Translations under genes and position numbers: made by a program
Source: a virus
Lineage: Duplodnaviria > Heunggongvirae > Uroviricota > Caudoviricetes
IMG/VR virus record: IMGVR_UViG_2690316227_000004
Length of the DNA stretch: 7,815 bases
Strand: one strand, 5' to 3'
Shown here: positions 2,394 through 7,815 of the stretch, in pieces
Layout of the letters: each line of letters starts with the position of its first letter
Numbering within the stretch: position 1 is the first letter of the stretch
The notes under the pieces: model-generated
Databases searched by the model: none
What the model was told of the DNA's origin: nothing
Seen by the model: only the letters and a program-made list of their open reading frames with translations

Positions 2394-4305
2394 TCACTCC
2401 TCCGGACAGCTTCGCTGCCAGTTCTTTCAGGGTTGGCCGGGTCGTCTCTTCTTCCCGGGATTTTGCCAGTACAGCCAGATCAAGCTGCCAGCGTTGCACG
2501 GACACACGTAATGCCGCGTAGGCATACACCAGGCAGTCCAGCGCTTCGTTACGCCGCTTTTTGTTATCCCACAGCAGACGCATCTTTCCTTTTTCCCACT
2601 TCTCCACCAGCTCTTCCGCCACCAGTTGCTGCGCCTCTGTCTGCGAAAAAATCTCCGGATCATCAGGAAAACGGATGGCATACGACGTGGCTTCATCCGC
2701 AGGCGAGGGATCGGCTTTCATACGGGCATAGAGAATTTCTTTTGCGGTGTCCGTTCCCACTTCACACAGATACACGCCCCGCTGATTGCGGGTTTTTGGC
2801 ATGGTGATCACCGGCTTGCCATAGACAGATGCGCCTTTTACCGGCAGCACCCGGAAAACACCGTGTTTTTTTGATCTCTGATAAACAATTTCACCATCGA
2901 TCCCCCCGGTGTCCCAGCAGACACGGGAAATAGTCATTTCGGTGCCATCCGCATGGCGGTATTTTTTGTTGATCGCCGCATCCACACGTAACAGCGTCTC
3001 TTCCTCATCAGGACGCCCCATAATGATGATTTTATCCACCAGAAAGGCTTCCTCTCCCGGAGCCCATCCCCAGACATACATCTCAAAACGGTTTCGCTGC
3101 GAGTCAATGCCCGCCGTCAGATAAACCACCCGGGCAGGCACCGCCGCCGTGTAACGCACCACCTTATCCATCAGTACCTGGTGATCGAGTTTTTCGCCCA
3201 CGGCCTCTTCCCAGGTCTCGCCCAGCGTGGTGTTCACAAAGGTTTTCAGGCCGTTGGGATCTTTCAGTGCATCCAGCCAGTCATAGACAATCTGTACCCA
3301 GGTGGTGAACGGACTGTACGCCGTCCAGATATGGAACGTGATGGAGCGCGGCGGCGGAATTTCATCACCCCGGGCGCTGAAAAACGTCAGACCGTCACGG
3401 GTCCACATGCCCGTGTTTTCACAGATCCACCGCCCGTTGCTCTGGTCCAGTTCAGACTGATGGATCACGCAGCCATGATGTTCACAGAGGTAGAAAACAC
3501 TTTCAGGGCTGTCCTTCTCCCATTTAAGCCCAAAAGGCGTGGACTCATCGCCAAATTTCAGATACTGCTCCTCCCCACAGTGCGGGCAGGGCACATAAAA
3601 ACGCATAAAATGCGCCGACTCGTTAGCGGCTTTTTCGATCTGGCAGGTGCCTTTGATTTTAGGCGTCGAGCCGCGAATGGATTTTGGCCACACCGACCCC
3701 TCAATACGCTTATCCCCCAGCAGGGTTGGCGAGCCCTCTTTTTCGACATCCGGCTCGAACGAGGAAAGTTCGTCATAGCAGACCACGTCCACGGATTTTT
3801 CACGGTAGTTTTTGGCGGCAGCGCCGCCCAGGCACCAGAAACCGACGCCCGATGAAAAGCGTTTCAGCGTGAGAGTATTGTCACGATGTTTACGACCCAG
3901 CCATGGGGAAAGGTCTTTCAGGCATGGCACGTTCCGAATCGTCGCCTCCACGTGAGACTTCATAAAATCTTCAGCGGCAGAATCCGTGGGCTGAAAAAGC
4001 AGACTGTTTCGGGATTTATGCTCAATAAAATACCCGACCACCCCCAGCAACATCTTTGTATAGCCAACACGGGCAGATTTAATCAGATTAACAGTGCGGA
4101 TCTGATCATTCCCCATGCTGTTCATGATGGCGATCTGGAATGGCAGCGTTTTCCATTCGCCCTCACCATATGAAGATTCTTTAGGCAGATAATAATTTTG
4201 ATCAGCCCATTCAACTGGCGTCACCGGCAATGCCCTTATCAGGGGCTGTAATGCAGTTGTGACAGCGCTCATCATATTATTCAGTTGTTGCTCTGATATA
4301 TTCAT
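2377..4305 (-). CDS. A: Terminase large subunit, lambda gpA-like (642 aa)
   Basis: The ORF is collinear with lambda gpA (641 aa). Shared features are the MNIS start, VEWADQNYYLPKES, the Walker-A-like KSARVGYTK, the CPHCGEEQYLKFGD...YLCEHHGC Cys/His cluster, TAYSPFTTWVQIV, LTAGIDSQ, and KKRRNEALDC near the C-terminus. I place the start at ATG 4305-4303 (MNISEQQ...), not the track's 4362, by alignment to lambda gpA and because this gives the lambda-like short overlap with the Nu1 gene. Confidence 0.97.
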   Translation of the reverse strand: MNISEQQLNNMMSAVTTALQPLIRALPVTPVEWADQNYYLPKESSYGEGEWKTLPFQIAIMNSMGNDQIRTVNLIKSARVGYTKMLLGVVGYFIEHKSRNSLLFQPTDSAAEDFMKSHVEATIRNVPCLKDLSPWLGRKHRDNTLTLKRFSSGVGFWCLGGAAAKNYREKSVDVVCYDELSSFEPDVEKEGSPTLLGDKRIEGSVWPKSIRGSTPKIKGTCQIEKAANESAHFMRFYVPCPHCGEEQYLKFGDESTPFGLKWEKDSPESVFYLCEHHGCVIHQSELDQSNGRWICENTGMWTRDGLTFFSARGDEIPPPRSITFHIWTAYSPFTTWVQIVYDWLDALKDPNGLKTFVNTTLGETWEEAVGEKLDHQVLMDKVVRYTAAVPARVVYLTAGIDSQRNRFEMYVWGWAPGEEAFLVDKIIIMGRPDEEETLLRVDAAINKKYRHADGTEMTISRVCWDTGGIDGEIVYQRSKKHGVFRVLPVKGASVYGKPVITMPKTRNQRGVYLCEVGTDTAKEILYARMKADPSPADEATSYAIRFPDDPEIFSQTEAQQLVAEELVEKWEKGKMRLLWDNKKRRNEALDCLVYAYAALRVSVQRWQLDLAVLAKSREEETTRPTLKELAAKLSGGVNGYSR

Positions 4306-6316: not shown

Positions 6317-6754
6317 TTATTTCAGGCATTGCGTCCTGATGTACTCCTGCAGGTAGTTAACCTGCGCGGTTATCTTGTCGATTCCACCTCGGAGACGGTA
6401 ATAATTGAGTTCAGCATCTGCTGTAAGTCCTGGGCTTTCTCCATCGCCCATGCTGCTGGCTCCGGTCGTTGACTTTGCACAGGTGGCGGAGACTTGCAGG
6501 CGCTTACGCCCAGCAGAAACATCAGCACGGAGACTTTCGATAGTCGCATTAGCATCAGCAAGCTCCTTTGTGTATCTGGCGTCAAGTTCTGCTACATCAC
6601 GTTGCCGCTTCTGCATATCAGCGATGATGGATGTGGCTTTATCGCGCTGCTCTTTGTAGGCGATGGCGTTATCACGGTAATGATTAACAGCCCATGAAAG
6701 GCAGACGATGAGGCAGATGACCAGAACGTAGATAATCGCGGTTACTCTGCTCAT
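6317..6754 (-). CDS. Rz: i-spanin (inner-membrane spanin subunit), lambda Rz-like (145 aa)
   Basis: [39 protein letters not shown]...[19 protein letters not shown]... closely parallels lambda Rz ([39 protein letters not shown]...). I place the start at ATG 6754-6752, which overlaps the endolysin TGA as ATGA. The track's earlier ATG at 6766 would add MGAT. Confidence 0.9.
6370..6555 (-). CDS. Rz1: o-spanin (outer-membrane lipoprotein subunit), Rz1-like (61 aa), fully embedded in Rz in a different frame
   Basis: The product [20 protein letters not shown]|[16 protein letters not shown]... has a signal peptide ending in the lipobox V-S-A-C and a Pro-rich mature part, as lambda Rz1 does. AAGGAG lies 7 nt upstream of ATG 6555. 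The gene is wholly inside Rz. Confidence 0.8.
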
Positions 6755-7248
6755 TGTTGCCCCCACAAACAGACTTCACGCTCAATCTCACGGCGAGTCA
6801 TCAGCCCTTTCCATTGCTTACCGCCAGCGTATGTCCAGCGCCGTAGCTGATCACATGCGCCTTTGATATCGCCCTGGTTTATTTTGCGAAGAAGCGTCGA
6901 TGTTCTGAAATTGCCAGCGCCCACGTTGTAAACGAACGAGTAAAGAGCGCCGCGCGTTGTTTCCGGTATATCGACTTTGATGTACGGGTTTATTTGTCTG
7001 GCGACCGTGGCAAGGTCTTTATTCAGGAGGGCTTTGCATTCTGCTTCGGTATACGTTTTACCGGGCATGATGTCTTTTCCGGTGTGTCCATGACATACAG
7101 TCCATACGCCAACGATATCTTCGTATGGTATGTAGCTGACACCTTCCAGGCCATCGTCACCACTCGGACCAGTGATGAGCACAGACGCTATGGCAACAGC
7201 CCCACCACCAATAGCAGCAGCAACGGCTTTTCGTAATGATGGAGGCAT
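6751..7248 (-). CDS. R: SAR (signal-anchor-release) endolysin, phage 21 R-like, T4-lysozyme/GH24 type (165 aa)
   Basis: The N-terminal weakly hydrophobic Gly/Ala-rich segment [21 protein letters not shown] is typical of SAR domains. The catalytic spacing E-x8-D-x5-T is present in [30 protein letters not shown] and the length match phage 21 R as I recall it. The ATG overlaps the holin stop as TAATG. Confidence 0.93.
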
Positions 7249-7454
7249 TATTCACCTCTCGCAGCCTTGCGCTTATCTTCTTTAATCTTGAAATAAAGGT
7301 TTGTCAGATACGTCAGCAGGCCAAACAGCAGACTCCCCAGCACACCTATTGCCACCCACTGGGACGGAGAGACTTTGTCCAGCAGCTGCAGTAACCAGTA
7401 TCCCGTCCCCACCGCTGACGTGGTGTATGACACACCCGTTGTGATTTTTTCCAT
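7248..7454 (-). CDS. S: Class II holin / pinholin, phage 21 S(68)-like (68 aa)
   Basis: [68 protein letters not shown] is collinear with S21-68 ([42 protein letters not shown]...[20 protein letters not shown] from memory). It has two TMDs and a basic C-terminus, and it lies directly upstream of the SAR endolysin. Confidence 0.9.
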
Positions 7455-7499
7455 CTGATGTATGTCTCCGTCACCGCCGACAGAAAATGAAAGTAAAGG

Positions 7500-7534
7500 A
7501 AAACAAAAAGCCGCCAGTGTCGCCCACTGACGGC
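7500..7534 (-). terminator. Strong intrinsic terminator about 45 nt upstream of the holin start (tR'-like)
   Basis: The minus strand reads GCCGTCAGTG-ggcga-CACTGGCGGC-TTTTTGTTTT. That is a 10-bp stem. The single imperfect position is a G-U wobble in the minus-strand RNA but a C-A mismatch in the plus-strand RNA, so the structure is optimised for the minus strand. Confidence 0.75.
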
Positions 7535-7541
7535 CAACGCC

Positions 7542-7601
7542 GGGAGCCGTGATTATGGCATTCAGGCTCTGCTAAAAATGCCAGATAACATTCCGGCTCC
7601 C
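7542..7601 (-). other. Extended leader hairpin immediately upstream of the tR'-like terminator
   Basis: An outer 8-bp stem pairs GGGAGCCG (7542-7549) with CGGCTCCC (7594-7601). It encloses an inner 7-bp stem pairing TGGCATT (7556-7562) with AATGCCA (7577-7583). Both are perfect complements that I read directly from the sequence. Confidence 0.5.
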
Positions 7602-7612
7602 CCCTGATTCAG

Positions 7613-7639
7613 GTTATAAATGACACAATATCTTGACAA
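7613..7639 (-). promoter_or_regulatory. Candidate sigma70 promoter (PR'-like) reading toward the lysis genes
   Basis: The minus strand has TTGTCA (7639-7634), a 15-nt spacer, and TATAAC (7618-7613). Both hexamers match consensus at 5 of 6 positions, but the spacer is short. The predicted start near 7605 coincides with the 5' base of the leader hairpin. Confidence 0.3.
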
Positions 7640-7687
7640 CACCCATCACTGTCTGTCAGAAAATGTACTGCCAGATATAAGTATCAT

Positions 7688-7752
7688 GTGAAACCCAACT
7701 ATCCTTCTTAGCCAGTACTTCTCCGAGGAAAGTCAGTACTGGCTGTTTTTTT
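7688..7752 (+). ncRNA. Candidate short plus-strand sRNA (about 65-85 nt) ending at the plus-strand terminator
   Basis: There are two alternative upstream promoter candidates on the plus strand. One is CTGTCA (7653-7658), 17 nt, TATAAG (7676-7681). The other is a perfect TTGACA (7633-7638), 18 nt, and an extended -10-like TGtCAGAAA (7654-7662). No plus-strand ORF of meaningful length precedes the terminator. The predicted RNA is a single-stranded 5' region (…GAAACCCAACUAUCCUUCUU) plus a terminator hairpin and U-tail, which is the usual Hfq-type sRNA layout. Confidence 0.35.
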
Positions 7753-7815
7753 CCTTAATAAAGCATCTGTAACTGAAACAATCCGCATATTGATAATATA
7801 TTGACAGGCATCATT
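7708..7815 (-). CDS. Possible 3' end of an upstream minus-strand gene; the frame is open to the right window edge. It could be the late antiterminator Q or another late-region gene.
   Basis: One minus-strand frame runs uninterrupted from the edge to TAA at 7710-7708: ...NDACQYIINMRIVSVTDALLRKKTASTDFPRRSTG*. The other two minus frames stop within 20 codons. I do not recognise the 35 codons as any family. They overlap the plus-strand terminator hairpin, so this may not be coding at all. Confidence 0.25.
   Translation of the reverse strand, partial: NDACQYIINMRIVSVTDALLRKKTASTDFPRRSTG
7710..7752 (+). terminator. Strong intrinsic terminator on the plus strand, opposite to every gene in the window
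   Basis: AGCCAGTACT (7710-7719), a 15-nt loop, AGTACTGGCT (7735-7744), then G and TTTTTTT (7746-7752). That is a perfect 10-bp stem and a T7 run. The minus-strand reading has an A7 run before the stem and AAGAAGG after it, so the terminator works in the plus direction only. Confidence 0.7.

Follow-up and report, generated by a model that had tools for sequence, protein, structure and literature searches.

A probable allele of the prophage sRNA gene pasA, convergent with the late operon, in the esterase-holin spacer of a lambdoid prophage

The window analyzed here, a stretch of 7,815 nucleotides, most probably carries on its plus strand, at 7668 to 7752, an intact copy of pasA in a variant allele, a prophage sRNA gene of the PasA/PasC family (EcOnc51 in EHEC) that would be transcribed against the late operon; we put the probability of this reading at roughly 85%. 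The unit sits in the 447-bp spacer between the esterase and holin genes of a lambdoid prophage. A preliminary description of this DNA, made from its letters, had proposed at this place an orphan plus-strand unit, antisense to the late operon, that makes an Hfq-type prophage sRNA of about 65 to 85 nt. What we find there is a syntenic homologue of the 85-nt, Hfq-dependent PasA. The proposal thus stands as far as the identity of the site as an sRNA gene is concerned, by homology to PasA, but not as a new element: the window carries a variant of an sRNA that is already published and experimentally validated. Nor is the unit an orphan, being the first of two tandem units.

PasA was found by RIL-seq in EPEC strain E2348/69 (Pearl Mizrahi et al. 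2021, PMC8550237). Its gene lies on the minus strand of NC_011601.1 and runs from 743499 to 743415 for the major form (85 nt) or to 743264 for a minor form (236 nt), within prophage PP2 and between E2348C_0688 and E2348C_0689, in the orientation "> < >" (PMC8550237). RefSeq gives these two neighbors as a SASA esterase and a class II holin. The RNA was confirmed by northern blotting and its stability is Hfq dependent; it took part in 41 RIL-seq interactions, which ranked it 12th by interaction number, and its homologues in EHEC are EcOnc51 and EcOnc52 (PMC8550237). EcOnc51 was described as an Hfq-CRAC peak in the spacer of Sakai prophage Sp12 (Tree et al. 2014, PMC4104026); by alignment, that spacer and the window spacer are the same locus. 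Most recently, Zhu, Shabalina and Storz (2026) located pasA and pasC between the gene for a sialic acid esterase and those for holin and lysozyme, with NC_011356 as the representative PasA phage. We find NC_011356 to be 93.9% identical to the window over 7440 to 7815.

The genomic setting of the window unit is the same. Positions 7455 to 7815 are 100% identical to E. coli NZ_CP062871, whose annotation puts all genes of the window on the minus strand, as the preliminary description had said: the terminase genes, genes for a KilA-N protein and a lysis protein, the lysozyme RrrD (6751 to 7248) and a class II holin (7248 to 7454). In the same record a 616-aa SASA-family carbohydrate (sialate O-acetyl) esterase of the NanS-p type of Stx phages, again on the minus strand, lies 87 nt past the end of the window. 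The 447-bp spacer of NZ_CP062871 aligns end to end with those of E2348/69 prophage PP2 and phage 434, and it is 94 to 95% identical in H-19B, YYZ-2008 (NC_011356), many Stx1a phages and phage 434. The location that marks the PasA/PasC family, between the esterase and the class II holin-lysozyme genes and on the opposite strand, is therefore shared by the window genome, E2348/69, phage 434 and Sakai Sp12.

The ends of the 85-nt gene were transferred from E2348/69 PasA through the alignment, in which the 5′ end of PasA falls on 7668 and the major 3′ end (743415) on 7752, the last T of a run of seven. The two RNAs align without gaps and are identical at 69 of 85 positions; identity to the Sakai Sp12 copy is 88%. 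The reverse complement of the PasA northern probe (CTCTCCACCGAAAGTCAGTGCTGGC) matches 7718 to 7743 save for the allele differences. A covariance model of the family gave one match in the window, at 7668 to 7752 on the plus strand (104.6 bits, E = 8e-20, model positions 1 to 85); the model was built from 15 alleles including that of the window, so the score is partly circular and mainly shows that the window holds no second copy. Expression, size (about 85 nt), Hfq dependence and partners are known from the E2348/69 allele, and Sakai adds Hfq-CRAC peaks; from sequence we infer the expression, promoter use and targets of the window allele. Base pairing that depends on Hfq is well supported as the mode of action of the PasA family.

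The PasA/PasC family is absent from Rfam, and it is for this reason that genome records annotate no sRNA here; in the annotations of the E. coli records that carry family alleles, nothing is marked at these sites. Likewise, a search of Rfam with Infernal, proposed as a check in the preliminary description, did not lead to a known family: a covariance scan of the whole window against Rfam 15, with E up to 1, returned no match in 7455 to 7815, STnc100 included. The sole match in the window was DicF at 3800 to 3829 on the plus strand, at 20 bits versus a gathering score of 48 (E = 0.89), and we rejected this as a chance GC-rich hairpin in the large terminase gene. A report on EcOnc27/STnc100 downstream of stx2 (PMC12711010) was also considered and is not pertinent to this locus.

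The feature that first draws the eye is the terminator. The 5′ arm AGCCAGTACT (7710 to 7719) and the 3′ arm AGTACTGGCT (7735 to 7744) form a perfect 10-bp stem around a 15-nt loop (hairpin at 7710 to 7744), and after G7745 comes a T7 tract (7746 to 7752) that would be the terminator tail and likely the Hfq-binding 3′ end. RNAfold places this hairpin in both the minimum free energy and the centroid structures, whether 7640 to 7760 (z = -2.8) or the 85-nt RNA is folded. We scanned both strands of the window for perfect stems of 10 bp or more with a loop of 3 to 20 nt and six or more T within the next eight bases. The plus strand has a single such site, 7710 to 7752, and the minus strand has none; a site of this kind arose in 1 of 200 dinucleotide-preserving shuffles of the window. 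A standard terminator scan missed the hairpin because its loop limit is 8 nt. Read on the minus strand, the stem runs into AAGAAGGATAG (AAGAAGG) and has no U-tract, so the hairpin can terminate plus-strand transcription only. Direct reading, RNAfold and the scan thus agree with the earlier description of a plus-strand terminator, with a perfect 10-bp stem and T7, that is unusable on the minus strand. Its further epithet, "textbook," suits the stem and the T7 run but not the loop, which at 15 nt is long for the textbook form. The annotators of phage 434 had independently placed a terminator on the same strand at the equivalent of 7734 to 7752.

The stem is also backed by covariation, as befits the terminator of the PasA/PasC family, here 10 bp followed by U7. 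Two pattern scans of IMG/VR, together with fetched E. coli records, yielded 165 loci with 37 distinct sequences, among which we recognize three stem forms: GCCAGCAC/GUGCUGGC in the PasA and Sakai type, GCCAGUACU/AGUACUGGC in the window type and GCCAGCGUCC/GGGCGCUGGC in the PasC type. Across 15 distinct alleles, 94.7% of stem cells are paired; the outer six pairs are invariant, and all four inner pairs of the ten have changed on both sides, counts that stand for only a few events, the alleles being related and recombining. Of 500 column shuffles, not one attained the observed covariation score, a shift of the 3′ arm by one to three columns lowers pairing to 17 to 57%, and RNAalifold recovers the same helix as the stem at 7710 to 7744. 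The run of T after the stem is T6 or T7 among the homologues.

Some copies are interrupted within the terminator hairpin by foreign sequence (IMG/VR loci L065, L087 and L088; L050 and L104). One interrupted type begins TGAACCGCCCCGG and resembles the IS629 junction of Sakai Sp4; the other begins TGTAGTGG and fits the terminator-less "PasA-3" of the 2026 survey.

Variation among the homologues also bears on whether the hairpin could be incidental coding sequence, the tail of a small protein gene on the minus strand. The preliminary description had noted a minus-strand frame open at the window edge (7708 to 7815) and asked what would follow if it were a real gene; in the source genome it is a closed ORF of 26 codons, with an ATG at 7788 and a stop at 7708. 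Beyond the presence of this ATG-initiated frame, little speaks for a gene. The ORF is annotated in none of the records examined, and the frame is not kept: a change between T6 and T7 is tolerable for a terminator yet shifts the frame of the ORF, as do occasional 1-nt insertions in close homologues, and the C terminus varies in length and sequence between alleles. The earlier description had named stem-breaking synonymous changes in homologues as the sign of a hairpin that is merely coding; the homologues instead hold the stem through substitutions that compensate at the RNA level. We regard a protein gene as the reason for the hairpin as highly improbable.

A second small frame lies on the plus strand, where a 23-codon ORF at 7620 to 7691 (MTQYLDNTHHCLSENVLPDISIM) spans the promoter and 5′ end of the sRNA. 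All five alleles checked keep this frame open to the same stop, with several amino-acid differences among them and no clear ribosome-binding site. It probably reflects chance, and would be relevant only if there were a longer precursor transcript. Its stop, 19 nt before the hairpin, makes the earlier remark that no plus-strand ORF ends there true only approximately.

Upstream of the RNA, a -35 hexamer that matches the consensus at six of six positions, TTGACA at 7633 to 7638, lies 29 nt before 7668, the equivalent of the mapped PasA 5′ end, and is unchanged in 36 of the 37 distinct variants from the 165 loci. Eighteen nucleotides after it is a weak extended -10-like element, TGt-CAGAAA (7654 to 7662), in which TG occupies 7654 to 7655 and CAGAAA (7657 to 7662) matches TATAAT at three of six positions, its last base 6 nt before 7668. 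A consensus promoter scan made no call at the TTGACA/CAGAAA site, the -10 having no T at position 6. CTGTCTGTCAGAAAAT served as the search anchor, so the collected loci do not speak to conservation of the -10 element. The unit-1 motif, TTGACA-N11-CTGTCTGT, does recur before the second tandem unit in a closely related form, TTGACA-N11-CTGTCTGTGAAAAAT. It seems likely that a sigma-70 promoter made up of TTGACA and TGn-CAGAAA drives the sRNA of the window. This was the first of two promoter candidates in the preliminary description, and its spacing fits a start at 7668 and would predict an RNA of 85 nt. The second candidate, CTGTCA-17-TATAAG with its -10 at 7676 to 7681, falls inside the mapped RNA, and we rejected it; the TATAAG is not conserved, reading TATAGA in PasA and GCATAA in the Sakai allele.

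Zhu et al. (2026), citing an earlier northern blot, state that the 5′ end of PasA is made by cleavage of a longer transcript. For the window, this would mean that the end near 7668 derives from a plus-strand transcript begun farther upstream and that TTGACA is not the promoter. The weakness of the -10 element agrees with such an origin, and the 23-codon ORF, open in all five alleles checked, would then sit on the precursor. Table S6 of PMC8550237, however, lists for PasA one 5′ end and two 3′ ends, so that the 236-nt species differs at its 3′ end; in our reading, one start with two ends is better explained by terminator readthrough than by 5′ processing. The arrangement of a perfect -35, an 18-nt spacer, TGn and 6 nt to the mapped end is also the geometry of a primary start, and the promoter motif is duplicated before unit 2, which in Sakai Sp4, where an IS element directly precedes the motif, still yields an RNA bound by Hfq. 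Cleavage as the source of the 5′ end is unlikely in our view, though we give it some weight, and we proceed with initiation near 7668.

The second unit begins at the very edge of the window. Alignment of the two units identifies 7790 to 7815, plus strand, as the promoter-like start of a diverged unit 2, with TTGACA at 7801 to 7806 and the body beyond the window. With 34 to 35 bits and E about 2e-5, the covariance model matches unit 2 in every two-unit locus; the match in NZ_CP062871 (L004 4367-4446) corresponds to window positions 7821 to 7900 and directly adjoins the stop codon of the esterase gene. The phage 434 annotation likewise has a second terminator next to this stop codon, 150 nt beyond the first, and the minor, 236-nt form of PasA has its 3′ end at the unit-2 terminator. 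In Sakai Sp4, where IS629 has removed or replaced unit 1, EcOnc52 is an Hfq-CRAC peak over unit 2; an Hfq-bound RNA at unit 2 in a locus that has no unit 1 implies that unit 2 is probably an independent RNA in its own right.

Other loci have one unit only, which then abuts the esterase stop. These are PasC (L005 2433-2510, in PP5 of E2348/69) and a window-like allele with the loop GAC found in 13 IMG/VR loci (e.g., L098, L022 and L039). From their sequences, the single-unit forms look like deletions of about 150 bp between the two tandem terminators. The hairpin of PasC is similar to that of unit 2. According to the 2026 survey, the copies of pasA did not arise by tandem duplication, and the diverged unit 2 was thus seemingly not counted there.

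The spacer also has features on the other strand. Just upstream of the holin gene are two minus-strand terminator-like hairpins with U-rich tails, at 7509 to 7535 and 7580 to 7597; the first has 11 pairs, seven of them G-C, and is an annotated terminator in phage 434. They may bar transcripts that are not antiterminated from the lysis genes. These two hairpins (7535 to 7509 and 7597 to 7580 in the sense of the minus strand) make the spacer resemble a general insulation zone, and one could imagine the plus-strand hairpin and T-run as a mere insulator or relic that blocks stray antisense transcription into the esterase gene, with the RNA a functionless by-product. In keeping with this, none of the pas genes has a reported phenotype. 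Against it, the homologous RNA is abundant and Hfq stabilized, ranks 12th in RIL-seq interactions and has partners with a common target motif (PMC8550237). In addition, the promoter elements are conserved, and about 640 to 700 of the 5,426 complete E. coli genomes keep the family, the carriers having three to five copies at the median. We consider a pure insulator quite improbable.

Where the window allele departs from PasA is in its seed. The PasA seed reported in Fig. S5 of PMC8550237 is GCCAGCACCU; the aligned positions in the window, 7711 to 7720, read GCCAGUACUU, with C changed to U at 7716 and 7719. This difference bears on membership in PasA in the narrow sense, not on membership in the PasA/PasC family. 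Both changes fit the stem: the one at 7716 is compensated by G to A at 7738, and the one at 7719 adds a tenth pair, with A7735. The seed thus lies within the terminator stem, a location that the authors of the survey call unusual (Zhu et al. 2026). By the pairing rules, U7716 and U7719 could still form G-U pairs with the target motif CUGnUGCUGG. Given that two seed positions differ, the published list of PasA partners may not transfer to this allele. PasA-2 is described in the 2026 survey as retaining the PasA seed and therefore fits the Sakai Sp12 type and not the window allele.

In all, 16 of 85 positions differ from E2348/69 PasA, the loop positions 7725 to 7727 among them, and there is almost no difference in the flanks. 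A comparison of 43 distinct two-unit spacers has its peak of divergence over 7655 to 7734, and the promoter region, outer stem and flanks are nearly invariant. With variation so concentrated in the body of the sRNA, either mosaic exchange or diversification of the RNA itself is suggested. Few records carry the window allele: its exact 85-nt sequence is present in 2 of 20,395 E. coli records and a variant with one base changed in the loop in 78 more, including O103 and O145, which makes about 80 in all, and 562 of the 20,395 have only types that are 80 to 90% identical. In sequenced phages the window allele was absent at 90% identity or above, the only type found there being that of H-19B, at 88%.

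One can envision a further step, in which the window allele, with its GCCAGUACUU seed and AU-richer 10-bp stem, is a third branch of the PasA/PasC family that differs in function, its targets shifted or weakened, in a locus that is a two-gene array of a PasA-type unit 1 and an EcOnc52-type unit 2, from which PasC-like forms arise by deletion between the terminators. As a whole this is a tentative proposal, and we think it more apt to fail than to hold.

For the RNA itself, we imagine the following course of events. RNA polymerase with sigma-70 would initiate near 7668 from TTGACA (7633 to 7638) and the TGn-CAGAAA extended -10-like element, and would terminate at the hairpin and U7 (7710 to 7752) to give an RNA of about 85 nt; a minority of transcripts might read through to the unit-2 terminator beside the esterase stop codon, giving about 236 nt. 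Hfq would be bound through the U-tail and hairpin, and the RNA would pair in trans with mRNAs by way of GCCAG(U/C)AC(U/C)U, in the 5′ arm of the terminator stem.

The location of the gene invites a different idea, that the RNA acts mainly in cis, by pairing or transcriptional collision with the complementary late transcript, and so modulates the lysis genes or the esterase. By position and strand, the RNA is perfectly antisense to any late transcript that crosses 7668 to 7752, and Tree et al. (2014, PMC4104026) describe convergent sRNAs as regularly present in lambdoid prophages downstream of PR′. The RIL-seq partners of PasA in EPEC include neighboring esterase mRNAs and an opposite-strand fragment at the PasA 5′ end, an Hfq-bound minus-strand RNA named "pasA.E2348C_0689.IGR" at the equivalent of 7655 to 7673 (PMC8550237). 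Most partners, though, are mRNAs of the core genome or other accessory mRNAs, with a short motif in common (PMC8550237), and the late operon is silent in the lysogen, where PasA is abundant. The site in the esterase mRNA, moreover, lies within the coding region and outside the antisense overlap, and when we compared it with the seed alleles there was no covariation, the site reading CUG[G/A]UGCUGGA in every allele. The two modes are not mutually exclusive; a mainly cis-acting RNA seems to us improbable, and we favor trans pairing.

The closest known counterparts are PasA of E2348/69 (PMC8550237) and EcOnc51 of Sakai Sp12 (PMC4104026), which share with the window unit its position in the spacer, strand, 85-nt span, promoter motif, hairpin with U7 and nearly identical flanks; the stem is 10 bp in the window allele and 9 bp in E2348/69 PasA. 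PasC of E2348/69 PP5 has the same promoter and general architecture, and over its first 25 nt the window RNA is nearer to the PasC type than to PasA. PasC differs in its GC-richer stem (GCCAGCGUCC/GGGCGCUGGC), shorter loop and length of 78 nt, and in that it abuts the esterase stop and has no second unit; it resembles a unit 1 fused to a terminator of the unit-2 type. Among other EHEC sRNAs, AsxR and AgvB (EcOnc01 to EcOnc03; Tree et al. 2014, PMC4104026) are, like the product of the PasA locus, encoded by prophages in the moron region, bound by Hfq and convergent with the PR′ late transcript, and they combine a conserved 3′ terminator part with a variable 5′ part, to which the divergence profile of the window locus (peak at 7655 to 7734) is similar. 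The likeness is one of layout and divergence pattern. Unlike the PasA locus, AsxR and AgvB make RNAs of 51 to 60 nt, lie directly downstream of a moron CDS near PR′ and sponge the core sRNAs FnrS and GcvB, an activity that PasA is not known to have. The PasD/EcOnc13/STnc100-like sRNA belongs to the same prophage module, pasD2 and pasA flanking the esterase gene in E2348/69, but it is unrelated in sequence, is encoded on the late-gene strand and lies on the far side of the esterase, outside the window.

Our findings show that reading of the sequence alone found a real prophage sRNA gene, one with experimental support, which goes unmarked in Rfam and in genome annotation. To what is known of the family, the locus adds an uncommon allele whose seed changes would keep pairing through G-U wobble only, and a second tandem unit, which would account for the 236-nt form of PasA as well as for the origin of single-unit genes of the PasC type. 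The pas sRNAs adjoin lysis genes, and in toxin phages also the genes for Shiga toxin, and in EPEC virulence mRNAs are among their contacts; differences between alleles such as those seen here could contribute to strain-specific regulation.
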